In this document: positions 19,473-54,832 of the stretch, in pieces
Position numbering within the stretch: the stretch's first letter is position 1
How the letters are laid out: each line of letters begins with the position of its first letter
Assembly: GCA_021817785.1 (NCBI GenBank)
Contig: JAKAFY010000007.1
Coordinates: forward strand, 127-64,126
Reading direction: 5' to 3'
DNA: 64,000 nt
Source of the DNA: a bacterium
Lineage (GTDB): Bacteria; Patescibacteriota; Microgenomatia; UBA10105; UBA927
Translations under genes and position numbers: made by a program
The notes under the pieces: generated by a model
Database searches by the model: none
Told to the model about the DNA's origin: nothing
What the model saw: only the letters and a program-made list of their open reading frames with translations

Positions 19473-20474
19473 CTACGGGATAGCAGAAACGATAGTCGTC
19501 GTGTCAATGGGGCCGGGAATCTCCTGAACAGATGATGTCCCCCTGAAAACGTACACAGGAACAAGGCTTGGAAGCGCGGGGGAGTAAAAAAATCCCAAAG
19601 CAGCGGACCGGACCTGAACCGATTGTAATATCGCAGGATTGAGATATGCCACCGAATATTCTGTCGGCGTCGCACTGGAAAGCACCCCCTCGTTGTTTTG
19701 TAAACGACCAACCGCCTCATCATAAGAGATAACCGCAATATCCTCATTGCTCTTTCGAATCGTGGGGAAAACATACCCGCCGAGCTCAACGAGGCGGTTG
19801 GCTCCGTCAAAACGCGCTGAATATGCCGGGGAATCTGCGTCGCCGACATACACGCGGTATCCATCGAGGGAAACTCCATAATCTATTTGGGCCACCGTTG
19901 CGCCATTTGCGTTGCTTGTGGCGTTTGGATCAGTTCCTTGAGGATTCATGAATTGATATGTAGGGGAAGATAATACAAGCGGTTTCGGTAACACATCAAG
20001 CGTTTGCAATTTTGCCAACGTTGCCTGTTGGTAGTATATGGTGTTTTGTGAGATGCGAGCGCCAGACAACGTCGCCTCTTCGTAAGAAAAGTAAAGCGGG
20101 TTATCTGAAACAATAAGGGATTTTGGGCCGTCCGTCGTGCTTAGGTATGCCCCCCTAGACCCATGAATTGTTTCGTTTTGACCAGACACACCCAGTACAA
20201 AAGAAAACCGATTAAATACACTCTGGGTCGTGTTCGCTTGATTGATCGCATAATACGGTAATCGAGCGGGAAAAGACTCGTTGGTAACATTAACGCTGTA
20301 GGAGATTGCCCCCGTGTTTACCGGGCGAGACAGTTGGTTGACACTAATTGTCGGAACAACACGCAAGGGGGGCATCACCGCGGCTTTTTGGGTCGATTGA
20401 CTCGTATATCCAATCATTGCAAGCGCGAGGATAATTATGAAGATGAGTGCAGGCAGTATATATCGTTTATTCAT
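19473..20474 (-). CDS. Hypothetical extracytoplasmic protein with an N-terminal TM anchor. It is the last gene of the minus-strand T4SS-like operon.
   Basis: N-terminal 'ILPALIFIIILALAMIGY' helix. Ser/Thr/Asn-rich beta-type sequence. Co-directional and nearly abutting the M23 gene. Confidence 0.3.
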   Translation of the reverse strand: MNKRYILPALIFIIILALAMIGYTSQSTQKAAVMPPLRVVPTISVNQLSRPVNTGAISYSVNVTNESFPARLPYYAINQANTTQSVFNRFSFVLGVSGQNETIHGSRGAYLSTTDGPKSLIVSDNPLYFSYEEATLSGARISQNTIYYQQATLAKLQTLDVLPKPLVLSSPTYQFMNPQGTDPNATSNANGATVAQIDYGVSLDGYRVYVGDADSPAYSARFDGANRLVELGGYVFPTIRKSNEDIAVISYDEAVGRLQNNEGVLSSATPTEYSVAYLNPAILQSVQVRSAALGFFYSPALPSLVPVYVFRGTSSVQEIPGPIDTTTIVSAIP

Positions 20475-20477
20475 ACA

Positions 20478-22658: not shown

Positions 22659-22663
22659 ACGCG

Positions 22664-24625
22664 TTATGTACTACTTTTTGTATTACCAACTGCTTCTACC
22701 GTAAACATCGGACGATTTGATCTTGGGAGGGTGGGTGGAGCCGTCAGCTCGGGAGCCGAAGACAGAGATGGCGGCTTTTTTGACGGCAGTTCCTGCATTG
22801 TCGGCACGGAAGACTGTTGTACGGCGGGGGTAGTCGGTTTCACCGTTTCCTGTGGACGCGTCGTGGCAAGCGCATGTTCTTCAGGGCTTGATACAACGCG
22901 CATTGCCGCGTGTGCGGGGCCTGCAAAAAACAACCCCTCTCCGATATCGGCCGCAAGCAGCAAATGTTTTTCCCCTTCAGATAAATAAAATACGTCGGCG
23001 ATTTTATCTATAGCCGCCGAAGATTGCTTAAGGAGAATCTGCATACTGCTGTTTTGGATAATCGCCTTTCCCATCTCCGTAGCCATAAAATCTTCCACGT
23101 CCTGGGTAATGGTGGTAAGTCCGAGATAATATTTTCTGGCCCGCTTGGCAATGCTATAGAGAAATTGCGCGGAATCCGGATATTTCATGAGATACCACGC
23201 CTCATCGACAATGAGGAGTCTTTTGCGCTTGTCATTTCTGATTTTGTTCCAGATAAAGTCCAGGATAAGATACATGGCAATGGGTCGGAGTTCATCTTCC
23301 AGATCCCGGATGGAAAAAACGGTCAGTTGATTTCGGATAGCTACGTTGGTTTGTTGGTCAAATATGCCGACTAAACTGCCCCGGACAAACTTTTCTATGC
23401 GGTCCGCCAACCCCTTGGCGAGGGGTTCTTCCATGCCGACAAGCGTTTTATACAGATCTTCCATAAGGGGAGGTTCTTTTGCGTGTGTAGTAGGATCCGG
23501 GGTGATGCCTTTCTGTTTGTATGTGAGGATAAGCGCGCGATCCAGTAATGCGTCCTCCGTCGGGGTAAGTTTGCCCATGACGACGCGGAAAAACCCATGG
23601 AGCGATAATATTTTTTGGCTGAGCTCGCTTTCTTCTCCGGCGGCATTACCAAGAAGGGCTAAGTCAAAGGGGTTTAGTTTCGTAACGGATCCGAAGCGAA
23701 ACCGGATATATTCGCCTCCCAGTGCATGAGTGACAGATTCATATTCATTCTCAGGGTCGATGATAATAACTTCCGTATCGAACATGAGAGAACGCATAAC
23801 CTCGAGTTTTACCATGTAGCTTTTACCGCCACCGGATTTTCCGAACACAACGGAGTTGGCATTTTCCAGCGTAAAACGGTCAAAGATAATTAAGCTGTCA
23901 TTGTGTTCATTCATGCCATATAAGATGCCCTCGTTTGCCGTAAGTTCGCTGGTGGTGAATGGGAAGGTGGTCGCAAGCGACGTGGTATCCATGTTTCTGG
24001 TGACGAGCAGCCGGTCTCTTCCCATGGGAAGCGTGGTTTTTAGCCCTTCCTCCATTTGTAAAATGGCTTTTTTGGTGACGATAAGCAGAGAGCCGAGTGT
24101 CGCCTCCACTTGCTTTGTCGCTTTGTCCAGGTCCTCTTTTGTTTTTGCGGGGATCGTAACATAGAGGCCAAACTGGAAAAATCGTTCCGACCCTTTTGCT
24201 AATTCCTGCTGCAGGGCAAGGGCGTCTTCTAGTGCCACCTGGATAGACGGCTCGATAACGCGGCCGCGTTTCAGGTCAGATTGTATGGTGGCCTCCATTT
24301 CCCCGACCTTGCGTTTCAGGTTTTCCAGTATTTCTTCGCTCCGCGTAGGGTAGATGTACATGGAAATATCCAACGTATGGTTAAACGACACAAGGGGTTC
24401 TAGCCAGTTGGCGGAGACGAATCTTGGATACCCCGCGACAAACAACGTCCGGTAATACCAGTCACCGACCTTTAGTAAATCAAAGTCCACTTCGATAGCA
24501 GGAGGCGCAATGATGTCCGTGACGACTAGCGGGCCGTCAATCGGCTTGGTCCGTGGGGACGGCCCCTCTGGCATGGGATTGATAAATTTTTTGAAAAGCG
24601 CCGCAATATCCGTATTATTTGCCAT
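22664..24625 (-). CDS. virB4: VirB4/TrbE/CagE-family type IV secretion ATPase.
   Basis: Walker A 'FGKSGGGKSYMVK'. Walker B 'RKRLLIVDEAWYLM'. ~650 aa with a VirB4-like C-terminal ATPase region. Confidence 0.85.
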   Translation of the reverse strand: MANNTDIAALFKKFINPMPEGPSPRTKPIDGPLVVTDIIAPPAIEVDFDLLKVGDWYYRTLFVAGYPRFVSANWLEPLVSFNHTLDISMYIYPTRSEEILENLKRKVGEMEATIQSDLKRGRVIEPSIQVALEDALALQQELAKGSERFFQFGLYVTIPAKTKEDLDKATKQVEATLGSLLIVTKKAILQMEEGLKTTLPMGRDRLLVTRNMDTTSLATTFPFTTSELTANEGILYGMNEHNDSLIIFDRFTLENANSVVFGKSGGGKSYMVKLEVMRSLMFDTEVIIIDPENEYESVTHALGGEYIRFRFGSVTKLNPFDLALLGNAAGEESELSQKILSLHGFFRVVMGKLTPTEDALLDRALILTYKQKGITPDPTTHAKEPPLMEDLYKTLVGMEEPLAKGLADRIEKFVRGSLVGIFDQQTNVAIRNQLTVFSIRDLEDELRPIAMYLILDFIWNKIRNDKRKRLLIVDEAWYLMKYPDSAQFLYSIAKRARKYYLGLTTITQDVEDFMATEMGKAIIQNSSMQILLKQSSAAIDKIADVFYLSEGEKHLLLAADIGEGLFFAGPAHAAMRVVSSPEEHALATTRPQETVKPTTPAVQQSSVPTMQELPSKKPPSLSSAPELTAPPTLPRSNRPMFTVEAVGNTKSST

Positions 24626-25325
24626 GAGATTCCTTTCCGAATTCCAGAGCGCTCATGTCCGGAGCGGTTGCCCCCGGGTTATATAAACTGAACAGAAATT
24701 TCACGAGCTGTTCTGTCGTAAGTTGCGTAGCATGGAGGCCCACGCGCGCCAGCAAACGGACGATATGATCCCGTTTTGGGAGCAGGCCCATCTGCGCGCG
24801 CTCGTAGATATATGATTTTTCATACGGAAGGCCCGTTTTTTTGGTCCCCAACAGCATGGAGGGGGAGGCGCCCAGTTCAAGGTTGGAGAAGGGAATGACG
24901 ATGTAAAACTTTTTGTCTAACACGTCCTTTTCCTTCACCATGGATGCCACAAACGCTCGGTATCCGTGGATGCTTTTGGTAAGCTGCGGATTTTTTTGCC
25001 GCGCCTCCTGATCTTCGAGAAGTTTTAAATATGCGGAGATATCTTTATGCTTGGTCTGGATGATGATTTGTATGGGAAACGATAGAGAATTAAGCAGCCC
25101 TGCATACGAGTAAATGATGGCGTCCTGTTCTTTTTCGGAAAGCAGGCCGAAATTAACGGCCGTTGTAGCAATGACGAGGGAAACGGATCCGTCCGCAAAC
25201 AATATCATGTCGTGGTCGATATCGGAAATTTCAGTAAACGATTGTGTAGACGCTCTGATGGGCACGATAGGTTGTGTCATAGGCTGTGTGTTACATGGTA
25301 TTTTTCCCGAAAATTTCCTGCGCAA
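24615..25325 (-). CDS. Hypothetical soluble protein in the T4SS-like operon, between the Pro-rich membrane protein and virB4.
   Basis: Its stop overlaps the virB4 start. No TM segments and no recognisable motif. Confidence 0.3.
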   Translation of the reverse strand: MRRKFSGKIPCNTQPMTQPIVPIRASTQSFTEISDIDHDMILFADGSVSLVIATTAVNFGLLSEKEQDAIIYSYAGLLNSLSFPIQIIIQTKHKDISAYLKLLEDQEARQKNPQLTKSIHGYRAFVASMVKEKDVLDKKFYIVIPFSNLELGASPSMLLGTKKTGLPYEKSYIYERAQMGLLPKRDHIVRLLARVGLHATQLTTEQLVKFLFSLYNPGATAPDMSALEFGKESHGK

Positions 25326-26682
25326 GCTTTTCCCGGGTGAGCTGTTTTTGACTCTTCGCGATAATTTCCAGGGCGGGGACGACCGCGCCGTTTAATGTGA
25401 TTTGTACCCGGGAAAAGGTGAATCTGCCCCGCGGGTCCTCAATTTCGACAAAATATGTGCCTGACCCCAGCGGGGTGGATGCGGCAAATTGCCCCAACTT
25501 GTTTGTTTTAAGTGCACGCATGGGTATGCCCTCTGCATTGGTGACCGTGACCAGGATGCCGGGGAGCTGATTGCCTGCATCGTCTTTTGCAAGGCCGGTA
25601 ATGACGTTGGCCACGTTCGTCAATCGCGGAAGCCCGACTTTGGTCGCCGCATCTTGGGTGTTTATCACTCGAACGGTAGATTTTTCCTGTTTCTCCTGCG
25701 GGGGAGCCGTTCCGGTTTTTGGTGCCGACCCATCTTCTGGCACGGCCGTTGCCGCACTACCCGGTTGCCCGCGGGAAAGCAGCTGCCGTTTAAGGTTGAC
25801 CAACTCATCCTCCATGGCGGAACGCTGTTGCAATACGTCAGTCAGCTGCTGCTGCAGTTCAAGTACCCGGTCAGCAGTTACATTTTTTGTCGAAAGTTGT
25901 TCTTGCAGTGTCTTAAGCGATGATTCGAGGTCTGCCATCTTCTGTTGTGTGGCGGCAGCATCGGAAATTTGTTGTTGCTGCGGCTTTGGCATTGTGGGAA
26001 CGGATGGCGTCGGTTTTATACCGGTAACACTTGGGATTGGTGCTTGAGGAATCATGCGCGCCGCTGTCTGTTGATGGACTGGTGCCGGGCGCTGTGATGG
26101 CCCCCAAAGCTCCGCAAGCCATGCCCACGGAGATGACGAAGAGCGCGTGGTAGACGTGAGTGCCTGCGCTTTTTGTGGTGAAGATGCTGGCGTCTGAAAA
26201 ATTCCGGAAAGCACTGTTTTTGTAGCGTCAGACTTAGTCGCTGCCACCCCCGGAACAGCCGGTCTCGGAATGGGGGTAGGCTGGTGCTGGGGTGGAGCGG
26301 GAGTCGCCTGTGGGCGCGCTGCGACAGGCTCCGCTTTTGGCACTTCTTTTATCCAAATATATTGGGTCGGGTTATAGATGCTTTTGAAAAACGAAAATAC
26401 CCATACGTCCATTGGACGCTCTTCGACGGGAATAAACGCAAACCCAACTCCCAGGAACGCAAATGCAAACGCAAGCGGCCACGTGAGGATAAACGGCAAA
26501 GGCAGGCGGTAGGCCAAAAAGGCCAGGATCGCTCCGGCGCACAAGTACCCGAATTGTTTAAGGGTCATGTCGCCGATTAAGCGGAATTGAAACGTGGTGA
26601 CGTTTTGTGGCACGGGGTGCTGTTCCATACTATATATGATTGTAAAGGGAAAAAAATACATGTTCAATAGCACAAAGCGCAT
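25291..26682 (-). CDS. Bitopic/polytopic membrane protein. It has 2-3 N-terminal TM helices, a Pro/Gln-rich linker, a coiled coil and a C-terminal globular domain. Its architecture resembles VirB10/TcpC.
   Basis: N-terminal helices (LCAGAILAFLAYRL; LAFAFAFLGVGFAFI). 'PQATPAPPQHQPTPIPRPAVPG...' proline-rich tract. A coiled-coil segment (LESSLKTLQEQLSTK...). It is the first gene of the minus-strand operon. Confidence 0.3.
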   Translation of the reverse strand: MRFVLLNMYFFPFTIIYSMEQHPVPQNVTTFQFRLIGDMTLKQFGYLCAGAILAFLAYRLPLPFILTWPLAFAFAFLGVGFAFIPVEERPMDVWVFSFFKSIYNPTQYIWIKEVPKAEPVAARPQATPAPPQHQPTPIPRPAVPGVAATKSDATKTVLSGIFQTPASSPQKAQALTSTTRSSSSPWAWLAELWGPSQRPAPVHQQTAARMIPQAPIPSVTGIKPTPSVPTMPKPQQQQISDAAATQQKMADLESSLKTLQEQLSTKNVTADRVLELQQQLTDVLQQRSAMEDELVNLKRQLLSRGQPGSAATAVPEDGSAPKTGTAPPQEKQEKSTVRVINTQDAATKVGLPRLTNVANVITGLAKDDAGNQLPGILVTVTNAEGIPMRALKTNKLGQFAASTPLGSGTYFVEIEDPRGRFTFSRVQITLNGAVVPALEIIAKSQKQLTREKLAQEIFGKNTM

Positions 26683-26688
26683 CAGGAC

Positions 26689-26718
26689 CGTGAAAACTCT
26701 ACTTTTATAGTTTTCACG
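26689..26718. promoter_or_regulatory. Perfect 10-bp inverted repeat (CGTGAAAACT-N10-AGTTTTCACG) in the divergent intergenic region between the two T4SS-like operons. Putative operator.
   Basis: Read directly from the sequence: 26689-26698 is the reverse complement of 26709-26718. It lies between the divergently transcribed 25291..26682(-) and 26772..28949(+). Confidence 0.3.
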
Positions 26719-26771
26719 AAACCCCGGAAGCTCTCAGGGTTGCCCACAGAAATTGTGATAAGATAGAAGCC

Positions 26772-28949
26772 ATGAATGCATCTCCGCTGGAGTGCCTGGA
26801 GGTTGTCGGGAATAGATTAAGTGAGGAAACGCCGCTTGCGATGGAACAGGTGTTTGCCGCATTTGCCAATGTACGACGGGAGGCACTGTGGCGCAGGATT
26901 TTTTGGCCGGGGAGGGTACAATACGCAAGTTTCGAAATAGCGGTGATGAACGGGCAGATCCATTTTTTTATCGTTATCCCGGCTCATCTCCGGAATTTTA
27001 TCGAAGGGCAGCTGACGGCGCAATATCCTCGAGTGGTTATTACGCCGATTGTTGATTATCTTCCGTCATTTTTTAGTCGGCCACATGCGATAGCAAGACT
27101 TCGGATGTGGAGCAGTTTTTATTACCCGCTTAAAACCTACGAGGACGTTAAAGACGTTGACTTATTGTCGGCGGTGTTGGGGCAGCTGGCAAAGTTGCCA
27201 GCTAATCAGGCCGTATCCATACAATTTCGGGTAACTCCGGCCGGGCGAGGGTGGCAGGCGCAGGCTGCGCACGTCATCGCACAGGGCGTTCCTGACCCGA
27301 ATTCTCAGTACGGCCGTACGCGTCAGCACCCCGATAGCAGAATTATCGAAACAAAACTAAGCGCCAGCGGATTACGGACAGGTATTCGCATAGTGGCAGC
27401 CGCATCAAGTGAATCTGAGGCATTTGACGTGCTAACGCGCGTTTCAGGATCATTCGGTGTGTATACGTTGGGAGGGGGGAATAGTTTGTTTCAGCCGCGC
27501 ACGTTTGTGTGGCAGAGAGATAGGCTTACCCGATCCATACTTAAACGTGGTATTTATCTTACGCCCCGAACGCACGTACTAAACACCAAAGAGCTTGCAT
27601 CATTGTGGCATCCTCCCGGCATGTCTCTTGCAACCGTAAAAAACATCCAGTGGGGGCGGGGCCTTTTGGGAGAGCCGCCGCAAAACCTGCCGGTGGCTAC
27701 CGACAATGAGGAGGAGCGGAAAACGATCAACTTTTTCGCAAAATGCGAATGGCGCAACCAACAGGTGACATTTGGGATCAAGCAGGCAGACAGGAGGAAG
27801 CACCTTTATATTATCGGAAAAACCGGCACCGGAAAATCCACGACGATTGCCAACATGGCTATAAATGATATGAAAAACGGCTCAGGCATGGCCATAATCG
27901 ATCCGCACGGGGATTTGTCAGAAATACTGCTGCAGTACATTCCCTCCAACCGCATTAATGATGTGGCCTATCTGGATCCGTCGGACAGTGAACATCCGTT
28001 TCACTTAAATCCCCTGGAAGTGAAAAACCCGACCTATCGAGAATTAGTGGCAAGCGGCATCGTATCGATATTTTACAAGCTGTATCACATGAGTTGGGGA
28101 CCCAGGTTGGAATATATATTGCGAAACACAATTCTCACGCTCACCCTGGTGCCGCAATCCACGTTCCTGGATATCCCGGAGCTGCTTACCAACGAACTGT
28201 TCCGACAGAAAATTGTGGATCGGTTGGAAGACCGGGTGCTCAAAAATTTTTGGGTGAACGAATTTAATAAATTTACCCCCCGGCTTCATAGTGAGTCAAC
28301 ATCCCCGATACTCAACAAAGTCGGACAATTTTTATCGTCACAGACCATCCGAAATATCGTGGGACATCCCACGTCAACGATCGATTTGGAAACCATGATG
28401 AACGAAGGTAAAATCGTTATCATGAACCTGTCCCAGGGAAAGCTGGGGGAGGATAATAGCGCATTGTTAGGCGCCATGATGATTACCAAGATGCAGTTGG
28501 CCGCGATGAACCGCGTATATCTTGCCGAAGATGAGCGGCGGGATTTTTATCTGTACGTCGACGAATTCCAAAACTTTGCGACGCAGTCATTTATCAAAAT
28601 TCTGTCGGAAGCGCGAAAATACCGCCTCAACCTCATTTTAGCCAACCAGTATATCGGCCAGATTGACGAGGACGTACAAAAGGCAATTTTCGGCAACGCC
28701 GGCTCGCTTGTGTCGTTTGGTGTCGGTGCGGCAGACGCGCGGCTTTTGACGCATGAGTTCGGCAGCAAATATGAGGAGCAGGAATTAGTGGGACTTGGCA
28801 ACTACCAGATCATATTGAAACTTGCGATCGATAATCAGACGTCTCTTCCGTTTTCCGCCATGACGCTTCCGTTGCCCAGGTCCCGTAACGAACACCGGGA
28901 CACCGTTATCCGCGTTTCTCGCGAACGGTATACAAAAAAGGTACAATAA
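26772..28949 (+). CDS. virD4: VirD4/TraG/TraD-like coupling ATPase (FtsK/HerA superfamily) lacking an obvious N-terminal TM domain.
   Basis: Walker A 'IIGKTGTGKSTT'. Walker B 'FYLYVDEFQNF'. ~725 aa. Divergent from the virB4 operon. Confidence 0.65.
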   Translation: MNASPLECLEVVGNRLSEETPLAMEQVFAAFANVRREALWRRIFWPGRVQYASFEIAVMNGQIHFFIVIPAHLRNFIEGQLTAQYPRVVITPIVDYLPSFFSRPHAIARLRMWSSFYYPLKTYEDVKDVDLLSAVLGQLAKLPANQAVSIQFRVTPAGRGWQAQAAHVIAQGVPDPNSQYGRTRQHPDSRIIETKLSASGLRTGIRIVAAASSESEAFDVLTRVSGSFGVYTLGGGNSLFQPRTFVWQRDRLTRSILKRGIYLTPRTHVLNTKELASLWHPPGMSLATVKNIQWGRGLLGEPPQNLPVATDNEEERKTINFFAKCEWRNQQVTFGIKQADRRKHLYIIGKTGTGKSTTIANMAINDMKNGSGMAIIDPHGDLSEILLQYIPSNRINDVAYLDPSDSEHPFHLNPLEVKNPTYRELVASGIVSIFYKLYHMSWGPRLEYILRNTILTLTLVPQSTFLDIPELLTNELFRQKIVDRLEDRVLKNFWVNEFNKFTPRLHSESTSPILNKVGQFLSSQTIRNIVGHPTSTIDLETMMNEGKIVIMNLSQGKLGEDNSALLGAMMITKMQLAAMNRVYLAEDERRDFYLYVDEFQNFATQSFIKILSEARKYRLNLILANQYIGQIDEDVQKAIFGNAGSLVSFGVGAADARLLTHEFGSKYEEQELVGLGNYQIILKLAIDNQTSLPFSAMTLPLPRSRNEHRDTVIRVSRERYTKKVQ

Positions 28950-29509
28950 TGCCCATGAACGTCGGCTTGCTTGGCGGAGCGTTTAACCCGCCACATAACG
29001 GGCACTTACTTATTGCGCAACAGGTTCTGGATTTTGCCGGCATGGATGAGGTGTGGTTTTTGCCCAATTATGGTCAAATTCCCCCCAAGCCGGTAGCGCC
29101 GGTAGCTGACCGTCTCGCCATGGTGAATCTCTTGCAATTGCCGCGGACACGGATTTCTACGATTGAAATAGACCAAAAGCTTGATGGTGATACGATCAAT
29201 CTGCTTCCGTTCCTTCCGAAAGAACATCAATTTCATTTCATTATCGGTTCCGATCAGCTTCCCACGTTTCATCTGTGGGGAGAATGGAAAAAATTGCTGC
29301 AACAGATGCCCTTTTTGATTTTCCCCCGGTACGGGTTTCCTAACGAGCCCCTGTACGGAAATATGCGCGTTGTCACAAGCGATATATTGGTGGGAAGTAA
29401 TCTGTCCTCAACAAAGATACGGAAAAGAGTCCAAAAAGGACTGCCGATAGATCACTTTGTTCCCCGGAAAATCGCTTCCTATATCAGCAGCCACGCTCTT
29501 TATCGGTAA
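28949..29509 (+). CDS. nadD: Nicotinate-nucleotide adenylyltransferase.
   Basis: 'GGAFNPPHNGHL' matches the (H/T)xGH nucleotidyltransferase motif. ~186 aa. Confidence 0.8.
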   Translation: MPMNVGLLGGAFNPPHNGHLLIAQQVLDFAGMDEVWFLPNYGQIPPKPVAPVADRLAMVNLLQLPRTRISTIEIDQKLDGDTINLLPFLPKEHQFHFIIGSDQLPTFHLWGEWKKLLQQMPFLIFPRYGFPNEPLYGNMRVVTSDILVGSNLSSTKIRKRVQKGLPIDHFVPRKIASYISSHALYR

Positions 29510-29578
29510 CTCCCTTGTTGTTGTCTTTCGGACACGATAGAATAATACCAGACGCGCAACAAAGCGCGTCCGTATGCT

Positions 29579-32500
29579 ATGGCCAATGAAGAACTATTTA
29601 AACGGTTAAGCGAAGCTGCAAAAAAAGCTGCCGCACCAAACAGTGAGCAGGCTCATCCGCAGCAGTCCACGGAAGCTACCAAGGCGGACCTTCCGAAGGA
29701 AAGCGCAACAGCTCCAGACACCTCCGGGGTCATAGACGTGGCAAAAGAAAAATTGGCGGAATTTGCCCAAAAACTCCGAGGATCCGTTCCCGAGGCAGCA
29801 AAGAGAATTGTCGGAAGCGACGAATCGGATTTGCCAAAAGATGCCCGCGTGTTTAGCATCGTAGAATCGCTTCTGGCTGTTGATGAGTCCCAGCTATCTG
29901 ATCCTGTTTTTATGCGCGGCGTGGGAGAAAAGCTGGTGGGACTTATCCAGGAAACGGGGTATACCAGCGCAACCGGTCGCGAAGCGGAAAAATACCTGCG
30001 GCGCATCGTTGCAGAAAATCCAAGTCTTGCGGATTTGCGTCTCCGGGCCATGCCGGAAATATCCGGTGGATCAGGTCTTTCTGAAGACAGAGAAGACGAA
30101 CCCGCAAAACAGTCTCGAGATCCCGAGCTTAGCCAAGAGGTTGAGCATCTTTATAATGCGGAACAAGACGTGGATATCAAAGACACGCCTCTTGCACAGG
30201 ATCTGCAGGACTTACAGTATCGGTTCCGAGTCGATCCGGGAGCCGCATACGACACCCGGCTTACCGATGAGGCGGTGCGCCGTATGGTGGAAAAAGGGCG
30301 CAAAGAAGGCATGGACCCTACTACGGTACAAAAGGCTGTAGAACGGGTGCGCTATTTTGAACGGTTTACGGATCTTCGGATGCAAAAACACCAAGAAAAA
30401 CTTCGTGGAGGTCGAGTGGTAGCGTGGAGTGAAATTAAGGGATCGTCCCCTAATCCCGAACTGCATCATGATGATGACGTTTTTCCGGACTTCCGGTATA
30501 TTCCGGCGGCTGAAGTGGAAACGATTATTAAAGGAGATGGTGGAGAGGCGGAGTGGTATTTTAATTTTATTGATCAAATTTACTCGCTTGGCCGTGAAGA
30601 AACACGTCCGACGCTTACGCAGGATCAGCGGTTTCAGGAGTTTAAAGATTTTCTTACATGGAAATATGGGAGCGAGTATCACCTTGCGGTGCAGCTGTAT
30701 CAAAAACATTGGGACAGCCGCGGGCAATTTGAGTATGCGGTCAAAGGACTCATGTATAACCCGGGAGACGTCAAGGACCGACTGAAGGCGATGTCACTAT
30801 TACAAGGGGCTGACCTTGACCACCTCTATAAAAATTTTGACCACTCGAACGAAGCATATAGTCTGTACGAGCATGTCATGTTTGAGCTCATGGCAGAAAA
30901 GCGCGGGAAATATGGAGAGGCGCTGAAATACCTTCGGGAAGACATCAACTGGAACGGAAAACAGATGAAGCGTGAAGACGTACTCAAAGAGCTGAAAGCA
31001 AAGCAGCGCGAAGAAGGGTATGATCCGGAAAAAGGAAAAACGGAGACGTCACTTTCGGTCGCGGATCAACGGCTCATGCATGAAATTCAGCAACAAATGG
31101 ATCTGGCTTCCGAGGGTGTTATGTTGTGGGATGACGACGTCCAAAGCTTTACCGAACTTCATATTACACTTTCCAAACTCCGGAATGCCAGAGAGGATTT
31201 ATTAAAGAAAAAAGGTGAGGGAGCGGTACTTTCCGAGAGTGAACAGGATCAACTGCATGAGGTGGATCGTTTATACCAAATATATTCGCACCGCGAAGAG
31301 ATGCTCAACGAAAATTTTACACAGGAGCTTATTCAGACCCGCGGATTATCACCGGTGGACATTGAAGTACGTAAACGCCTGGTAGAGTATATGAAGTCAC
31401 AAACCGGCAAAGAGCCGGCGGAGTATGAGGTGCGCATGGCACTGTGGGCTGCGCGCACCGCCATGATAGGAAGCGGCCGCATGGCCATGATTGGCTCGAT
31501 GATGTCGATCCCGCCATCTCAGGAATATCACGCGGCAAGCGGCAAAGATGTCATGCGCGCCCCCGCCTTTGAAGACTTGCAACGCATATTTAATCCGGAG
31601 ACATTCGCTTCCCGGTTTAATATTGGCGGAGAGATGGGGGTTACGGCCAGAGGAATACTGCGGCAAAACCTGTTACGGACCAAAGGCATTACGATGAAAG
31701 ATCCCGGCTGGTTTAAGAAAACAAGCGGATGGATAGGCGAGAAATTTAAGTTAACCAAAACACCGGAATGGAAAAACGCCCATGCGCATTCTCACGACAA
31801 ACAACAACAGGCGGCCATGGAAGCATGGGAGTTTGCAGAGGATGCGACCGGCATATCGTTTAGCGAATTGCTCGGACCCAGCTTTATGGCCTCTGGAGGA
31901 TTTTACGATGGCACCGCGTGGCGGTTGGAGAAAGGGATTGCTGATGAACTACGAAATAAGATGCTAGATATGAGAAAATTGCCGGAAAACGCAGCGCTAT
32001 TGGATAATCAGGCATTATCCATACAGCTTCTCACTGCGGGGAATGCAGCCGAGCGCCGGCCGATTCTCGATCGCATGCTCCGAAGAAACCCCTCGAAATT
32101 CCTTGAACTTCTTGAAGAGGACACAGAAAAGATCCTCATTAAACATAATGTAACGCATGAAGAGTGGAAGAAGTTTAAAGAAGCTCTTTCGTTGGCCGAG
32201 CTTAAGATGGCCCACGAGAAAGAATGGCAATTTGCCCGTGTCGATCTGGGGGAGAAAAAAGACTTTGATGCGTTGGTAGCCCCGTATCTTAAAATGCTCG
32301 ATGTTGAACCCGGAAGAACCGAAAGTTTCCGCGCGGTGCTCACTGATTTGCAGGCAGAAGTGTATCGGAGCCGCAAGGTGGAGGCAGCAAGCGGCGTATT
32401 CCGGAACAAAATGGATGCCATAGCCCAGCTTAAGATGCCTCTTACCATGAGTCTTACCGACATGGACTGGAAGGAATCAAACTTTTATCAGTTAGGAACT

Positions 32501-33199
32501 GTTGCAATGCATCGCCGTATTCGTGATGTGGGGAGCCAGATGCGCGCACGCGATGCCATGCTTGAATTTATGTCCAACTCCGAAATGTTGCTTTCCCCCA
32601 ATGATCCGACGGAGTCATTGAAGAAACTCATGGAAATCCGTACGGCGATTATCGACTACTCCGGACCGGAAGCTGCGGAAAATACCGTAAAAGAAATGGC
32701 ACGCGTGCTTATCGAAATGAATAGACATCGGAATTTATGGACGATCGGCATGGTTCCCGGCTTAACCACCGCAGGAAAGATGTTCGCGGAGGTGGATTTC
32801 CGGCCGCTAAAGGATAGTTGGGCCACGGCCCCACTACGACTTATTATGGGGGGAGATCGTTGGCGCAAATTGATAGACGAAAAGATAGCGCACTTGCCGC
32901 ACTCTGTAGCAGAGAAGATTTCGTATTCTCTGCGGTATACAGGAGCACACGGAAATGCATGGGACGAACGGAAAATCGAAGAAGTGTTAGTTACCATGCA
33001 TGATATGGGCATGTTTATTCACCATCCTGAATACGTTCAAGACCTGAGGAGAGAATTTCATGCGAAATTGGGAGATCGGTGGCTGGCAATGGCGAGAACG
33101 TACTGGTGGGTTATTGTGCTGGCAACAGTAGCAATTGCCGCAGAACAGTCTATAGAAGAACAGAAATCTGGCGGTGGTGGCGGAGGCGCGCACCATTAA
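29579..33199 (+). CDS. Giant (1206 aa), highly charged, alpha-helical protein. It has a single C-terminal hydrophobic anchor and a Gly-rich tail. No signal peptide and no recognisable domain.
   Basis: Uninterrupted ORF. Lys/Glu/Asp-rich throughout. The C-terminus reads 'WWVIVLATVAIAAEQSIEEQKSGGGGGGAHH'. Co-oriented with virD4 and nadD, and convergent on the VirB6-like gene. Confidence 0.5.
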   Translation: MANEELFKRLSEAAKKAAAPNSEQAHPQQSTEATKADLPKESATAPDTSGVIDVAKEKLAEFAQKLRGSVPEAAKRIVGSDESDLPKDARVFSIVESLLAVDESQLSDPVFMRGVGEKLVGLIQETGYTSATGREAEKYLRRIVAENPSLADLRLRAMPEISGGSGLSEDREDEPAKQSRDPELSQEVEHLYNAEQDVDIKDTPLAQDLQDLQYRFRVDPGAAYDTRLTDEAVRRMVEKGRKEGMDPTTVQKAVERVRYFERFTDLRMQKHQEKLRGGRVVAWSEIKGSSPNPELHHDDDVFPDFRYIPAAEVETIIKGDGGEAEWYFNFIDQIYSLGREETRPTLTQDQRFQEFKDFLTWKYGSEYHLAVQLYQKHWDSRGQFEYAVKGLMYNPGDVKDRLKAMSLLQGADLDHLYKNFDHSNEAYSLYEHVMFELMAEKRGKYGEALKYLREDINWNGKQMKREDVLKELKAKQREEGYDPEKGKTETSLSVADQRLMHEIQQQMDLASEGVMLWDDDVQSFTELHITLSKLRNAREDLLKKKGEGAVLSESEQDQLHEVDRLYQIYSHREEMLNENFTQELIQTRGLSPVDIEVRKRLVEYMKSQTGKEPAEYEVRMALWAARTAMIGSGRMAMIGSMMSIPPSQEYHAASGKDVMRAPAFEDLQRIFNPETFASRFNIGGEMGVTARGILRQNLLRTKGITMKDPGWFKKTSGWIGEKFKLTKTPEWKNAHAHSHDKQQQAAMEAWEFAEDATGISFSELLGPSFMASGGFYDGTAWRLEKGIADELRNKMLDMRKLPENAALLDNQALSIQLLTAGNAAERRPILDRMLRRNPSKFLELLEEDTEKILIKHNVTHEEWKKFKEALSLAELKMAHEKEWQFARVDLGEKKDFDALVAPYLKMLDVEPGRTESFRAVLTDLQAEVYRSRKVEAASGVFRNKMDAIAQLKMPLTMSLTDMDWKESNFYQLGTVAMHRRIRDVGSQMRARDAMLEFMSNSEMLLSPNDPTESLKKLMEIRTAIIDYSGPEAAENTVKEMARVLIEMNRHRNLWTIGMVPGLTTAGKMFAEVDFRPLKDSWATAPLRLIMGGDRWRKLIDEKIAHLPHSVAEKISYSLRYTGAHGNAWDERKIEEVLVTMHDMGMFIHHPEYVQDLRREFHAKLGDRWLAMARTYWWVIVLATVAIAAEQSIEEQKSGGGGGGAHH

Positions 33200-33200
33200 G

Positions 33201-34823
33201 CTAATGCCCGCCCTCTCCTCCTCCGGTGAGGCCACCAAACCCCTTTTGTGAGCCTTCGCGTATCGTTTGCATCGGAGATCGCGCATCCGGCTTGTGCCGA
33301 ATTGAGCTTGCGATAAATGAACCCTGATACCATAGTTGTGTAAGTTGACCAACGCCAGACCCCAGAGGTCCGATAACCGCCCCGACCCCTCCAGGGATAA
33401 ATGGTTCCGCCTTCAGCGCCTTTTTGATGCTGCCAACAATATTCGGGATGACGAGAAGCATCCCAAGTCCGATAAATCCGGCCATGCCCGTAACCCCTCC
33501 GCCGCTTGATAAAAGTGGCGGAGCCCATATTTTTTCCGCGTTGGTTTGCGAAGTAAGAAATCCCGCCACCAGAAGAAGTACTGCGGTGAGGGGAAACACG
33601 ATAATATTTGCGGTCAGCCATCGAAACCAGCTACTGAATGAATTGGTGCCCGGGATGGCCTCCAGCATGAGCTGGAATGGTGAAAATAACAGAGAAATAA
33701 TAATATTGATATATGCGTCCACAAGCATAAAAATCAGACGGATAATTCCAAAGATTAAAACGATAAGAACGATAAGAAGAAGCAGGACCGGACCGTTTGT
33801 AAGTCCGACGGCTATGGCGGAAGCCTTTCCACCGCCTCCGATTAAGTAGGTGAGGACCCCCTGTACGACCATTGCAGTTCCAACCTGACCTGGAGTGAGA
33901 TTGCCTATCAAAAGTCTGCCAATATCATCAAGCGCCTGGAATCCGCTTGCGAAAAAGAATCGGAGCGTTCCCCATATGCCGCCATTCAATAATGTATTAA
34001 CGACCTGCGGAGTAGAGGTAGACGTGGTTGTAAACGACGGAAGCCACGTGGCCGGGCTTAATAAATTTGGATTCCACAGCCAGCTTGCCCCGGCGTTCAC
34101 GAGGGATCCAAGCGATCCATCGGGTGTGGCTCCGATGATGAGCCCGGCGGCGAGAACAATGATAAGGTACATAAGGTCAATCATAAGTCCCACGATTGCA
34201 TATGAAAATGTGACGAGAAGAAGTGCGATGACCACCCTGGGGATAGCATTTTGCACGGTTACAACTGTTTTGGGATCGATTTTTTTTCTAAACATGACCA
34301 TAAAACCGATAATGATGAGAATAACGGCAAGAAGTGCATAAGCGACGTTACGAAACGCTTTCCAAATGGGGAGCAGTACGCTAAGTCCGGAAAAACCGAT
34401 GCCCTGCGCATACGTTTGTTTGGGCATAAATCCGAGTGTCTCTCCAAGATCGCGGATGGCGAACGCAGTTGTCGCAGGGGGAGTGGTATAAAGCGCAAGC
34501 GTAACACTTGAAAGCCCGGCAAGCGCACTGTGACTATATGCGGCTTTTGCAGGACATCCTCCGACGAAATAGGCTCCGGCTATGCTAATAGTGTCCTGAA
34601 ACATGTAATTGTTATTGGACGAAGCCTGTGGCGTTGTTCCCTCGGCACACGCACCCATGATGCTGTAAATAATGCCCACCATGGAATTATTTTGTGTCGC
34701 AATATTTCCTCCCTCAAGACCAAGAGGAGTGGGATCTTCTGCGCGGACGGAGGTGGGAAATGCAAAAAAAACGGTTACGCCAATGAGAAGAGGAAGAATC
34801 AACAATAGGACAGCACGTTTCAT
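33201..34823 (-). CDS. VirB6/TrbL-like polytopic inner-membrane channel protein.
   Basis: Signal peptide (MKRAVLLLILPLLIGVTVFFAFPTSVRA). A ~130-aa extracytoplasmic region, then 5 or more TM helices, and a Gly-rich C-terminal tail. Located directly downstream of the pilin array. Confidence 0.45.
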   Translation of the reverse strand: MKRAVLLLILPLLIGVTVFFAFPTSVRAEDPTPLGLEGGNIATQNNSMVGIIYSIMGACAEGTTPQASSNNNYMFQDTISIAGAYFVGGCPAKAAYSHSALAGLSSVTLALYTTPPATTAFAIRDLGETLGFMPKQTYAQGIGFSGLSVLLPIWKAFRNVAYALLAVILIIIGFMVMFRKKIDPKTVVTVQNAIPRVVIALLLVTFSYAIVGLMIDLMYLIIVLAAGLIIGATPDGSLGSLVNAGASWLWNPNLLSPATWLPSFTTTSTSTPQVVNTLLNGGIWGTLRFFFASGFQALDDIGRLLIGNLTPGQVGTAMVVQGVLTYLIGGGGKASAIAVGLTNGPVLLLLIVLIVLIFGIIRLIFMLVDAYINIIISLLFSPFQLMLEAIPGTNSFSSWFRWLTANIIVFPLTAVLLLVAGFLTSQTNAEKIWAPPLLSSGGGVTGMAGFIGLGMLLVIPNIVGSIKKALKAEPFIPGGVGAVIGPLGSGVGQLTQLWYQGSFIASSIRHKPDARSPMQTIREGSQKGFGGLTGGGEGGH

Positions 34824-34877
34824 ATAGTCATTATCCAGAATTACATAGCGAGAGTCAATTCGGGGATAATTTGGAAT

Positions 34878-35174
34878 TTAATTTACCGGTATGGAAAACG
34901 TTGTAACATTGACGCCCGTAAATTGTTGAATGGTAAGTATTATAAGGTACGCAATAGACATAATGGCGAGACCGATGATGGCTTGGGTAATCGTGCCTCG
35001 CGCCGTTTCCAGTTTCTTGGGGTCACCTCCGGAAAACAGAAAATTATATCCGCCCACCAAAAGCATGATAAACAATGCTACCGCCCCTAAGCCGATAACT
35101 GCCCGAACGATTCCTTCAAAAAGGGGGACAAGACATTGAATAGTTGCGGCCCCGTCAATTGCGCAATTGTTCAT
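34878..35174 (-). CDS. VirB2/TrbC-like pilin paralog 1.
   Basis: Two hydrophobic helices flank a conserved core 'GGYNFLFSGGDPKKLETARGTITQAIIGLAIM'. Confidence 0.55.
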   Translation of the reverse strand: MNNCAIDGAATIQCLVPLFEGIVRAVIGLGAVALFIMLLVGGYNFLFSGGDPKKLETARGTITQAIIGLAIMSIAYLIILTIQQFTGVNVTTFSIPVN

Positions 35175-35225
35175 ATGACATCATTATCTCGTATTTCTTC
35201 AGAAGGGACAAGCAATCGATAATGA

Positions 35226-35564
35226 TTAGTATGGTTTCGGGAAGTTTATAGACCCGCCGATGATCTGTACGCCCAGGAAGTTCTGGACGAGCGTCATGAT
35301 GGCCCATGCGGATCCTACGATGATGAGTCCGACAATAGCGTGGGTAATTTTGTTGCGGGCTTCTTCCATGCCGGCTTTATCTCCGCCGGAGGTGATCCAT
35401 TTAATGCCGCCTAAGACAAGGTAGAGAAATGCCAAAAGAGCGGCAATAATCAGTGTTGTGCCGACCAATGCACTAATCAGTTGGCCAAGATCCGTGATCT
35501 TAATCGTGTCCGGCTGTTTCAGATTTAATGATGCCTGTGCGTAAACTGTTTCTATAAGTGCCAT
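35226..35564 (-). CDS. VirB2/TrbC-like pilin paralog 2.
   Basis: Core 'GGIKWITSGGDKAGMEEARNKITHAIVGLIIVGSAWAIMTLV'. N-terminal 'YAQAS'. Confidence 0.55.
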   Translation of the reverse strand: MALIETVYAQASLNLKQPDTIKITDLGQLISALVGTTLIIAALLAFLYLVLGGIKWITSGGDKAGMEEARNKITHAIVGLIIVGSAWAIMTLVQNFLGVQIIGGSINFPKPY

Positions 35565-35676
35565 AGGTTTCCTCCGTCAAATCAATCTTTATTATATCCT
35601 ATACCCCATTCTTGCGCAAATTTGTCGGCCTTGTCAACACCGAGCTTTATCAAGCAGCGACACGGGAAACAAATCG

Positions 35677-36024
35677 CTATTGGCCCATGGTCGGCAGATG
35701 CAAGTTCGGGAAATCGATACCCAAAAATCCGCCCACAAGCGTCATGATTGCCCATATGGCTCCCACGATAATAAGCCCGATAATGGCATTGGTAATCTCA
35801 TCCCGTGCGGCCTGGAGCTTCGCCTTGTCTCCGCCCGAGGTAATCCAGTTAAATCCGCCGAGCAACAGATACATAAATGCGACGACGAACGAAAAAATGA
35901 CAAACGCGCCGATAAAGTTCGAAATAAGGGATCCGATGGCAGATGAGCCGTCCGCGTTGCCGCCGCCACCCAATGAGCTCGGAAGTACCGGGTTGGTTAT
36001 TTGTGCGAGCGCGTGCGTTATCAT
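35677..36024 (-). CDS. VirB2/TrbC-like pilin paralog 3.
   Basis: Core 'GGFNWITSGGDKAKLQAARDEITNAIIGLIIVGAIWAIMTLV'. N-terminal 'HALAQI'. Confidence 0.55.
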   Translation of the reverse strand: MITHALAQITNPVLPSSLGGGGNADGSSAIGSLISNFIGAFVIFSFVVAFMYLLLGGFNWITSGGDKAKLQAARDEITNAIIGLIIVGAIWAIMTLVGGFLGIDFPNLHLPTMGQ

Positions 36025-36029
36025 ATCGG

Positions 36030-36404
36030 TTATTGATTCGGACTAAGCCGGTTAATCAGATCTCCAGGACTGGAAATAGTAAAGTCAACGCCAAAAAATG
36101 TCCCGGCAAGCGCTAATATAGCCCACGCGGCAACCACAACAATAAGCCCGATAAATGCGTTGGTCAGTTTATCGCGGGCGGTTTGCAGCTTTGCCTTATC
36201 GCCGCCGGCGGAAATCCAGCTGAATCCGCCAATCAAAAACTGGATAAGAAACCAAATCCCTGCGGCGATCGTCATGAGGCCAACGACTGAGGAGATTATT
36301 TTTGTTATCCCCATGAGCCCGGAGGTTCCGTCGCTGCTGTTGGCGAATGGCCCGAGGCCTGCGCCACCGATTTGACCGAGCGGTACTTGTGCTAAAGGTT
36401 TCAT
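36030..36404 (-). CDS. VirB2/TrbC-like pilin paralog 4.
   Basis: Core 'GGFSWISAGGDKAKLQTARDKLTNAFIGLIVVVAAWAILALA'. N-terminal 'MKPLAQV'. Confidence 0.55.
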   Translation of the reverse strand: MKPLAQVPLGQIGGAGLGPFANSSDGTSGLMGITKIISSVVGLMTIAAGIWFLIQFLIGGFSWISAGGDKAKLQTARDKLTNAFIGLIVVVAAWAILALAGTFFGVDFTISSPGDLINRLSPNQ

Positions 36405-36405
36405 A

Positions 36406-36759
36406 CTATTGCGGGCCGTAGATTACCGGATTTAGGATCGAGAATCCCGGTCCGAAAATGAGATAGCCAAACAGTGACGCGATGGCAAACGATGCCACCA
36501 TGATGACCAGCCCCATAAGTGACTGCCATATGCGGGACCACGCCTTTTCCAGTTTTTTGCTGTCGCCTCCCGCATTGATGTATTCAAATCCGGCGATGAG
36601 AAAGTTAAATAATGCGTATATGCCAGCCACAACAAACAACAAACGGATAATGTTGGTGATAAACAGCCCAACTCCGCCCAGATTGCCATAGCTGGTGCCC
36701 ATGAGCGGACTCTGAACCGTTCCGAAAATCGGTGCGACGTCTACAGCAAGTACTTTCAT
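36406..36759 (-). CDS. VirB2/TrbC-like pilin paralog 5 (the most divergent).
   Basis: Core 'AGFEYINAGGDSKKLEKAWSRIWQSLMGLVIMVASFAIASLFG'. Confidence 0.5.
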   Translation of the reverse strand: MKVLAVDVAPIFGTVQSPLMGTSYGNLGGVGLFITNIIRLLFVVAGIYALFNFLIAGFEYINAGGDSKKLEKAWSRIWQSLMGLVIMVASFAIASLFGYLIFGPGFSILNPVIYGPQ

Positions 36760-36765
36760 AAAACG

Positions 36766-37074
36766 TTAAAATCCCAGTAATTTTTGACCGGTGATGACAC
36801 TGATAATTTGTACGATCCAAAATGACCCGAATACTACAAGCAATCCGATAACCGCGCCCGTTATCGCGGCTTTGCCCTGTTCCGCTTTTTTGGCGTCGCC
36901 TGCGGCTACTATAACTTGAAAACCGCCGAAAATCAATAAAAAGAAGCTTATAAGACTGGCAAAAACAAACGCATTCCGGACGATTGCGGTGACCAACGGG
37001 CCAAAGGACGTGAGTCCCGGGTTCGGGGCGAGATTTGCAATATCTATAGAGTCCGCAAGCACTTTTTCGATCAT
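36766..37074 (-). CDS. VirB2/TrbC-like pilin paralog 6. The start is placed at the internal Met (MIEKVL...) of the longer 36766..37224 ORF.
   Basis: Core 'GGFQVIVAAGDAKKAEQGKAAITGAVIGLLVVFGSFWIVQII'. The longer ORF would run into the divergent sigma-factor promoter region. Confidence 0.45.
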   Translation of the reverse strand: MIEKVLADSIDIANLAPNPGLTSFGPLVTAIVRNAFVFASLISFFLLIFGGFQVIVAAGDAKKAEQGKAAITGAVIGLLVVFGSFWIVQIISVITGQKLLGF

Positions 37075-37092
37075 GTAGCCAGTGTAGGGAAT

Positions 37093-37674
37093 TTGAGGCG
37101 GGCAGTCAATTATGCTATAGTCATACGTTGTCTCATGGATGATACAACGCTTATCAAACGATTGTTTGCCCACGACCGGAAATCCGTCTCCGCGTTTTAT
37201 CACGAATACGCCCCGCAATTGCACCGATTTATCCTGGGACGCGTTGCATTTTCCCAGGATGCAGAAGAGATTTTACAGGATACCCTGTTTGCATTTTTGG
37301 AAGGCCTTCGGGATTTTCAGGGGAAAAGCAGTATCCGGACATATCTGTTTTCCATTTGTCAGCACAAAATAATCGACTACTATCGCCGGAAGAAAATAAA
37401 GCATCTGGTGTTTTCCCAGGTTCCGCAGCTTGAAATGCTGGTATCTCCGCTGATGGGGCCCGAGGCATCACTCGATGAAAAGCTGGTAAAAGAGAAAATC
37501 CAGAAAGTACTTTCCCGGATTGCCCCTGTATACCGCCAGGTGCTGGTACTCAAATATCTGGAGCAGGTGCCGGTTGAGGAAATTGCCCAAAAACTTTCCA
37601 TATCGTTTAAAAGTGCGGAGTCACGGCTTTTCCGTGCCCGAAAAAATTTCGTGGAGCTGTTTTTGTCTATCTAA
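37093..37674 (+). CDS. RNA polymerase sigma-70 factor, ECF subfamily.
   Basis: Region 2 'LQDTLFAFLEGLRDF...YLFSICQHKIIDYYRRK'. Region 4 'YRQVLVLKYLEQVPVEEIAQKLSISFKSAESRLFRARKNF'. ~190 aa. Confidence 0.85.
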   Translation: MRRAVNYAIVIRCLMDDTTLIKRLFAHDRKSVSAFYHEYAPQLHRFILGRVAFSQDAEEILQDTLFAFLEGLRDFQGKSSIRTYLFSICQHKIIDYYRRKKIKHLVFSQVPQLEMLVSPLMGPEASLDEKLVKEKIQKVLSRIAPVYRQVLVLKYLEQVPVEEIAQKLSISFKSAESRLFRARKNFVELFLSI

Positions 37675-40788: not shown

Positions 40789-40823
40789 AGAATGCAGGGT
40801 GAGAGATGGGGGCTCGTACAGCG

Positions 40824-42444: not shown

Positions 42445-42479
42445 GGTTTCATCCCGAGTTTATCGCAGGATCTTACTTT

Positions 42480-54831: not shown

Positions 54832-54832
54832 C

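Follow-up and report, generated by a model that had tools for sequence, protein, structure and literature searches.

A large, predicted all-alpha protein of an undescribed family encoded beside a VirB6-like gene in Microgenomatia type IV secretion loci

A 64,000-nucleotide stretch of DNA from a bacterium of the Microgenomatia (GenBank assembly GCA_021817785.1, contig JAKAFY010000007.1, positions 127 to 64,126; hereafter the window) carries, within a type IV secretion system (T4SS) locus, an open reading frame (ORF) for a protein of 1206 amino acids (aa). An earlier note, made from the sequence alone, had described this protein as an acidic, tail-anchored orphan that might be a secretion substrate or effector, or else a cytoplasmic scaffold of the machine. 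Our analyses suggest that a known machine, a T4SS with pilins that resembles the FATA type of mating-pair formation systems (MPF-FATA-like), probably carries here a giant, lineage-specific component or cargo that had not been described before. Its gene forms an unbroken pair with a convergent VirB6-like gene and, judging from pairwise sequence distances, clearly appears to share the evolutionary history of the secretion-machine module.

Organization of the locus

The gene and its surroundings are listed in Table 1. The reading frame of the earlier note proved sound: the MANEEL... start is kept in homologs, and the stop codon (33197-33199) is indeed separated by a single nucleotide from that of the convergent 540-aa gene (33201-33203). 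Several other claims made there were likewise confirmed. The protein is mildly acidic and strongly charged (D+E 16.5%, K+R 13.9%, net charge -31, isoelectric point 5.64, no cysteine) and helical in the predicted model; its N-terminus (MANEELFKRLSEAAKKAA...) is hydrophilic, with neither a signal peptide nor an N-terminal hydrophobic segment; and it has no recognizable catalytic motif, as neither a Walker A motif in its sequence nor a Pfam or NCBIfam domain was found. The chain ends in ...RTYWWVIVLATVAIAAEQSIEEQKSGGGGGGAHH. In its N-terminal region, a MANEEL..AAKKAA helix that is conserved only within the close clade is joined by a Pro/Glu/Gln-rich spacer, by a small helical domain (aa ~81-160) and by a linker of acidic character (aa 161-178); elsewhere in the family this region can be longer by as much as ~380 residues.

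Table 1. Features of the locus, in window positions
Feature	Position	Strand	Remarks
ORF of the 1206-aa protein	29579..33199	+	1206 codons plus TAA, ATG start; undescribed Patescibacteria (Microgenomatia) family
N-terminal region, aa 1-299	29579..30475	+	variable across the family
Conserved all-alpha core, aa ~300-1160	30476..33058	+	from broad alignments and AlphaFold2 model
Hydrophobic helix TYWWVIVLATVAIAA, aa 1174-1188	33098..33142	+	Arg just before; membrane anchor or docking helix possible
Acidic, Gly-rich, His-terminated tail EQSIEEQKSGGGGGGAHH, aa 1189-1206	33143..33196	+	
Promoter-like motif TTGTTG-17 nt-TAGAAT	29515..29543	+	in the spacer between nadD and the ORF
GC-rich hairpin, 9 bp	29549..29572	+	between the -10-like box and ATG
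VirB6-like candidate, 540 aa, polytopic	33201..34823	-	signal peptide and ~6 hydrophobic segments; last gene of the pilin operon
Array of six T4SS pilin genes	34878..37224	-	PF18895
VirD4-like coupling ATPase, 725 aa	26772..28949	+	DUF87, TrwB_AAD_bind, TraG-D_C; Walker A at aa 349
nadD-type nucleotidyltransferase (cytidylyltransferase)	28949..29509	+	1-nt overlap with the VirD4 stop; variably present elsewhere
Divergent T4SS operon	19473..26682	-	PrgI/VirB3-like 463 aa, TrsD-like 236 aa, VirB4 653 aa, M23 726 aa, exported 333 aa

The VirB4 of the locus is of the TraG P-loop type, and the locus as a whole is of the Gram-positive or candidate phyla radiation (CPR) type. Whereas the convergence of the large gene on the pilin operon holds, as the earlier note had stated, the VirB6 identity of the gene at the end of this operon found no Pfam support: the 540-aa protein gave no VirB6/TrbL match, and the name VirB6-like comes only from its position and its hydrophobic segments.

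The earlier note also considered the gene to be co-transcribed with VirD4 and nadD. The latter two overlap by one nucleotide, but a 69-bp spacer separates nadD from the large gene and holds a promoter-like motif unique within the 64-kb window. In 12 orthologous loci both hexamer cores (TTGTNN-17-TAGAAT) are invariant in spacers that are otherwise variable, and because of this invariance the gene probably has its own, predicted, promoter; read-through from VirD4 is possible but co-transcription is not required. In two of these related loci, L007 and L009 (we number loci with an L), the TAGAAT box lies 6 nt before the ATG, a position that suggests a leaderless transcript. Comparable GCGC hairpins, found in most orthologous spacers, cannot be aligned, no consensus structure could be derived for the hairpin in the 5' untranslated region, and Rfam gave no match in or next to the gene.

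A constant partner in a syntenic region

We compared 27 loci with sequence downstream of the gene, namely the genome loci described below, contigs of family representatives 17-28% identical to the window protein and three true pattern matches from metagenomes. In all 27 the gene converges on a VirB6-like gene, which encodes a polytopic protein of 460-575 aa homologous to the 540-aa protein of the window, and pilin genes come next wherever the contig reaches. The pairing holds over the whole span of identities of the large protein, 100% down to 21-27%. The gene order in the 16 genome loci is M23-VirB4-TrsD-PrgI, VirD4-nadD-large protein, VirB6-like gene plus six pilins, and Yip1-HMGR-HMGS-thiolase. 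The upstream side is nevertheless variable: nadE is often inserted after nadD (L016, L017, L020 and L043), L018 lacks nadD and has the gene straight after VirD4, VirD4 was not detected upstream of the gene in L016 or L042, and the upstream context differs in L041 and L042, both of which keep the VirB6-like partner. Because the downstream neighbor is present in 27/27 loci whereas VirD4, nadD and nadE vary upstream, the large gene and the VirB6-like gene are the constant pair; the unbroken adjacency is with the latter and not with VirD4 or nadD. Synteny extends over the whole ~20-kb region, including dnaA/dnaN, the T4SS, nadD/nadE and the mevalonate genes.

In L041, a distant locus, the VirB6-like gene is separated from the first pilin gene by an inserted HicA/HicB toxin-antitoxin pair (6073-6547).

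An undescribed family of Patescibacteria

The protein is not the orphan that the earlier note supposed. A word-indexed search retrieved 41 full-length homologs (46-100% identity, all 1185-1246 aa), and its repetition with broad alignments yielded no proteins beyond the same 41. An exhaustive HMMER profile search over 1.84 billion representatives (a library clustered at 50% identity) returned 109 family representatives at E <= 1e-3, 78 of which had E <= 1e-30. Most of them are full-length (1130-1590 aa), and their alignment starts at about residue 200 and reaches the C-terminus. When 185,579 species genomes, one genome per species, were scanned, 16 distinct loci were identified, one per record, and the gene appears to be single-copy in the genomes that carry it. 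All family members with an organism name belong to Patescibacteria (Gottesmanbacteria/Woesebacteria); the viral contigs and plasmids that we searched contained no relative. A degenerate DNA pattern for RKYWWVVP matched 18 loci in metagenomes, three of them true.

The metagenome-assembled genomes (MAGs) that contain the 16 loci are labelled as Candidatus Gottesmanbacteria, Woesebacteria, Patescibacteria or 'uncultured Gammaproteobacteria', the last being binned third-party annotation (TPA) assemblies. The title 'uncultured Gammaproteobacteria bacterium' is found on the MAGs of L002, L006, L007, L009 and L013-L016 despite a clearly Patescibacterial locus and probably reflects an error of labelling in the TPA binning project.

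The remote-homology searches that had been recommended thus revealed an undescribed family without annotated relatives: no meaningful match to Pfam, NCBIfam, PHROGs or PADLOC was obtained with the window protein or with 37 members of the family, and neither narrow nor broad profiles matched PDB sequences (best E 0.62). The earlier note had held that homology to SMC or another housekeeping family would explain the gene independently of the T4SS, and no such homology was found. An SMC, MukB or chromosome-partition protein was rejected in view of the missing Walker A motif, the lack of matches in Pfam, NCBIfam and PDB sequences and a non-significant structural match to MukB. We also discarded a relaxase (MOB), since no HUH, Rep_trans or PD-(D/E)xK domain was detected by Pfam or NCBIfam in the window protein and the 37 members and the model is all-alpha, and a VirB6/TrbL identity, extended VirB6 included, since the protein has one hydrophobic segment instead of at least five transmembrane helices and no TrbL/VirB6 Pfam match.

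Conserved core and predicted structure

Across the family, E665 and R979 are invariant in 3/3 broad alignments, and R669, R782 and P1060 reach invariance in two of them and at least 90% conservation in the third. Conservation of at least 90% in at least one broad alignment was found for G513, S591, M659, N672, F676, F680, G687, G758, G773, W781, R836, R980, D983, Y1027, S1115 and G1122. Within the close clade the invariant blocks are long, as exemplified by YQKHWDSRG, NPGDVKDRLKAM and FNPE.FA.RF.IGG.

The structure prediction proposed in the earlier note produced a confident result. When 80 sequences including distant representatives were used, AlphaFold2 modelled residues 81-1206 with a predicted local distance difference test score (pLDDT) of 88.8, 789 residues at 90 or above and a predicted template modelling score (pTM) of 0.80, whereas 28 close homologs only had given a poor model (pLDDT 59, pTM 0.28), on which the Foldseek search was discarded as meaningless. 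The model is all-alpha and single-bodied, with about 60 helices and four short hairpins; its low-confidence parts are the acidic linker, two loops and the last eight residues. Foldseek comparison of the good model with PDB and BFVD returned no match at E <= 0.001. We rejected weaker matches to MukB (E 0.11, TM-score 0.05), a phage 'nuclease' (E 0.018, TM-score about 0.1) and karyopherins (E 0.16-0.19, TM-score <= 0.1). No internal repeats were detected by hhalign comparison of 160-residue profile segments against each other (best probability 5%); an ARM/HEAT/TPR alpha-solenoid was rejected for this lack of tandem repeats, a TPR_14 match (E 0.046) falling below the cut-off. The protein may represent a new fold, unseen in the PDB.

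The near-invariant polar set in the core (E665, R669, R782, R836, R979, R980, D983, Y1027 and S1115) invites the idea of an enzyme or ligand-binding factor that would use these residues to process or load T4SS cargo, in replacement of a relaxase or accessory proteins. Such a function would be in keeping with the long invariant blocks, a sign of very strong purifying selection in the clade, and with the location of the gene beside that of the coupling ATPase. We nonetheless consider it improbable, given that Pfam, NCBIfam, PADLOC and PHROGs recognize no catalytic motif or domain, that HUH, Rep_trans, PD-(D/E)xK and P-loop signatures were not found, and that the all-alpha fold has no structural neighbor.

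The C-terminal helix and tail

An uncharged run near the C-terminus characterizes the family. It measures 15 aa in the window protein and 12-19 aa (median 15) in 104/104 full-length members, with a consensus R-K-Y-W-W-V-V-P-x-A-T-I-A-x-A, and in each of the 104 only 6-21 residues follow before the protein ends. The net charge is +1.6 before the run and -0.8 after it, an EEEKK-like block follows the helix family-wide, and many members end in His (71/104) or contain a poly-Gly stretch (40/104); the GGGGGGAHH tail reported in the earlier note after the hydrophobic helix is real. Few stretches are as well conserved across the whole family as the final ~35 residues. No second hydrophobic segment exists, as 0/103 members reach a Kyte-Doolittle 19-residue maximum of at least 1.6 upstream of the last 70 aa. 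The statement that the protein is tail-anchored was not confirmed as such: the segment is single and C-terminal, but its hydrophobicity is borderline for a transmembrane helix, with a maximum on the same scale of 1.64 over a 15-aa run and values of at least 1.6 in only 14/104 members. Tail anchoring is plausible from these sequence features, and a docking helix or a secretion signal would fit them equally.

The VirB6-like neighbor also ends in a Gly-rich stretch with His (GGLTGGGEGGH, 33201-33240, minus strand) that resembles GGGGGGAHH. Within the close Gottesmanbacteria clade (L001-L016) neither tail has been lost, but distant lineages mostly lack that of the VirB6-like protein. An explanation of these tails as the by-product of a shared bidirectional terminator hairpin was rejected, because folding is no better than in shuffled sequences (z -1.3) and the tails persist where 159-217 nt separate the two genes.

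Divergence and covariation with the secretion machine

In 15 loci the protein shares 60-83% identity with that of the window, in one locus 46% and in all the others 21-27%, compared with 73-88% for VirB4, 61-89% for VirD4, 57-68% for HMG-CoA reductase (HMGR) and 67-84% for HMG-CoA synthase (HMGS) in the same loci. Within the close clade its identity is close to that of VirD4 (66-89%) and higher than those of the VirB6-like protein (49-65%), PrgI (51-65%) and M23 (36-52%). From this comparison of sequences we infer that purifying selection acts over all ~1,200 residues in the close clade.

To describe covariation we used all-against-all pairwise distance matrices of 19 loci, with the mean HMGR/HMGS/thiolase distance as control; locus pairs are not independent, so the resulting partial r values are descriptive. 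The distances of the large protein follow those of the machine genes (pilin-112, 0.86; PrgI, 0.84; VirB4, 0.77; TrsD, 0.71; VirB6-like, 0.70; M23, 0.69; pilin-124, 0.62) much more than those of other genes (VirD4, 0.35; nadD, 0.30; HMGS, 0.02; HMGR, -0.37).

These values bear on another explanation, namely that the protein is a housekeeping membrane-associated protein, involved for instance in envelope or membrane organization, which lies beside the T4SS through general origin-proximal synteny only. The maintained gene order of the whole 20-kb region and the promoter-like motif of the gene would be compatible with it. Such a protein would, however, not be expected to follow the T4SS genes once housekeeping divergence has been controlled for, nor to keep its VirB6-like partner in L041 and L042 despite their different upstream context. 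It would also resemble some housekeeping family, and ours resembles none; all its organism-named members are Patescibacteria and none is found in plasmids or viral contigs. We regard this explanation as very improbable.

When the T4SS genes (VirB4, TrsD, PrgI, VirB6-like, pilins, M23 and the gene of the large protein; 19473-37224 against L001-L043) are considered together, they share divergence beyond that of the mevalonate enzymes. This suggests that the secretion module may evolve in discrete 'types' within Microgenomatia, by host adaptation or module exchange.

Other features of the window

The T4SS directly adjoins dnaA and dnaN (16817-19471), and the minimum of the cumulative GC skew falls at ~16-18 kb. 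For these two reasons the replication origin is probably located there, next to the T4SS. A published note has reported that Patescibacterial T4SS loci are near dnaA, which matches this window.

Divergent from the pilin array, a gene (37093-37674, plus strand) codes for a sigma-70 factor of the extracytoplasmic function (ECF) type, with regions 2 and 4. The same gene occupies that position in the distant loci L017, L018, L020 and L043, so that it may be a regulator dedicated to the pilin/T4SS operon. A full mevalonate cluster follows (38582-46582), with HMG-CoA reductase, HMG-CoA synthase, thiolase, diphosphomevalonate decarboxylase, undecaprenyl-diphosphate synthase and two GHMP kinases, one of them fused to a NUDIX domain. 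Further downstream, a tmRNA of 433 nt (52595-53027) was matched by Rfam, whose model has 374 positions, and was not reported by ARAGORN. Seven tRNA genes occur in 54746-63949, five of them for different tRNA-Ser, one with the unusual anticodon ACT (56159-56243).

Possible roles of the protein

The linkage that would be expected of a T4SS component or of a dedicated cargo was found both in gene order (27/27 loci) and in evolutionary distances (partial r 0.62-0.86). The link to the T4SS drawn in the earlier note is thus strongly supported, although one of the premises from which it was drawn, the lack of homologs, is not. The protein probably belongs to the T4SS module of Microgenomatia of the Gottesmanbacteria/Woesebacteria type, either as a missing part or as a cargo.

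We tentatively propose, with a probability of about 0.4, that it serves the Microgenomatia T4SS as a cytoplasmic platform close to the membrane, a role that, like its attachment and docking, we infer. The protein would be made in the cytoplasm, as it has no signal peptide, and would fold into a single large all-alpha body, free of repeats and about 1,100 residues in size. The C-terminal helix, flanked by Arg/Lys on its N-terminal side and by an acidic block on the other, would probably hold it at the inner membrane face, where it would dock on the VirB6-like/VirB3-like membrane core and act as a platform, in the manner of the large hydrophilic alpha-helical domains of the Saccharibacteria 'extended VirB6'. 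It may also tether the VirD4-like ATPase. Canonical type IV coupling proteins (T4CPs) are anchored by an N-terminal transmembrane part, as VirD4, TrwB and TraD exemplify. The ATPase of this locus has no transmembrane helix (Kyte-Doolittle 19-residue maximum 1.27) and carries a ~300-residue region (DUF8128 in homologs) where the N-terminal anchor is usual, and it is this lack of an anchor of its own that leads to the tether idea.

Several observations weigh against a platform. Synteny across the entire region, mevalonate genes included, makes synteny alone less informative. No fusion of a VirB6-like protein with a protein like ours was found among the best 120 of 629 VirB6-like homologs. Between clades, this is the most divergent gene of the locus (21-27% identity versus 61-81% for the ATPases), which would be unusual for a core structural subunit. 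The C-terminal helix is short and may not span the bilayer, and with a median of +6.1 kcal/mol the Hessa delta-G summed over 19 residues makes it a marginal candidate for a transmembrane helix. Finally, the weak covariation with VirD4 opposes a dedicated VirD4 tether.

The main alternative is a dedicated translocated substrate, or 'core effector', of a relaxase-less T4SS, with the last ~35 residues as secretion signal and the helix as an anchor in the host membrane, and this we hold to be possible but not probable. The gene mostly follows that of the T4CP, which is the slot of the relaxase, that is, of the substrate, in conjugative systems (PMC12102498), and Patescibacterial T4SSs have no relaxases and no known substrate. 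The C-terminal ~35 residues are conserved family-wide and their helix is less hydrophobic than a normal transmembrane segment. Reduced hydrophobicity has been reported for membrane-targeted effectors, and the Glu-rich block presumably resembles the 'E-block' of Dot/Icm substrates, a resemblance that we take as a lead only. The step-like divergence (from 72% to 24% while the enzymes remain flat) would fit host-specific adaptation, and effectors are typically large and acidic, with a novel fold. Effectors usually vary, however, whereas this protein is present in every examined locus with the T4SS set, at a fixed place and collinear over ~1,000 residues, and its conservation within the clade equals that of VirD4. 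The never-broken adjacency is with the VirB6-like gene instead of VirD4, and the distances covary with VirB4, PrgI and TrsD, cytoplasmic machine parts none of which faces the host. We slightly prefer a scaffold to a substrate or effector. Even more speculatively, the protein might be a 140-kDa cargo that leaves by way of the pilin-bearing machine and that its C-terminal helix would anchor in the host membrane, where it would build or gate a conduit by which these metabolically minimal epibionts would obtain material from their host. This seems unlikely to us; if true, the step-like divergence would record host switches.

Comparison with known systems

In the only member of the Patescibacteria that is amenable to genetics, epibiotic growth requires the T4SS, and several canonical subunits are missing from Patescibacterial systems. 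A 2025 survey of their T4SS genes clustered the neighbors of virB4 and reported only homologs of known subunits; it found VirB6 to be 'scarce' in Microgenomatia and most T4CP genes to be far from virB4. Neither this survey nor a 2023 transposon sequencing (Tn-seq) study nor a 2025 nomenclature review mentions the family described here. The family, whose gene adjoins the VirB6-like/pilin operon throughout one major class of the CPR, is a concrete candidate for the missing structural part or the missing cargo of these machines and provides a specific, testable handle on how they work. To our knowledge, no Gottesmanbacteria have been cultured.

Its likeness to known proteins is only partial. As in C-tail-anchored proteins, there is no signal peptide, and the only hydrophobic segment, preceded by positive charge, is separated from the C-terminus by 6-21 residues, but this segment has 12-19 residues and is mostly below standard transmembrane thresholds, so that its insertion is putative. 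As with conjugative relaxases, a large protein is encoded next to the T4CP, but ours is all-alpha and lacks HUH, Rep_trans and nuclease domains. Helicobacter CagA is a T4SS effector of about 1,200 aa with a novel fold; it shares with our protein its size, a largely helical nature, the absence of fold relatives and its encoding within a T4SS locus. The two have no similarity, and the Patescibacterial protein differs by its conserved C-terminal helix, its fixed position throughout and its high conservation within the clade. The subunits of the Dot/Icm coupling complex, DotM, DotN, IcmS/W and DotY/Z, are cytoplasmic or membrane-proximal accessories of a VirD4-family ATPase, beside which they are encoded and work. 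They are small, unlike the protein studied here, which shows no sequence or fold similarity to them and covaries weakly with VirD4.

The closest parallel to a platform is offered by the extended VirB6 proteins of Saccharibacteria. The essential T4SS of Southlakia epibionticum includes SEML1_0011 (998 aa) and SEML1_0013 (1088 aa), which have ARM-like helical domains of 250-280 residues (PMC10633639, Tables S1/S2). According to their descriptions (PMC10633639, PMC12857230), these proteins resemble ours in bringing large helical modules to a Patescibacterial T4SS, physically or genetically coupled to a VirB6-like protein. Both kinds are encoded next to a six-gene pilin array, and in the one system tested the two SEML1 proteins are essential. 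The difference lies in the way the module is delivered: in Saccharibacteria, an ARM-like domain of 250-280 aa is fused to the polytopic protein, whereas in Microgenomatia the module would be a separate chain of 1206 aa, without repeats and with one C-terminal helix.

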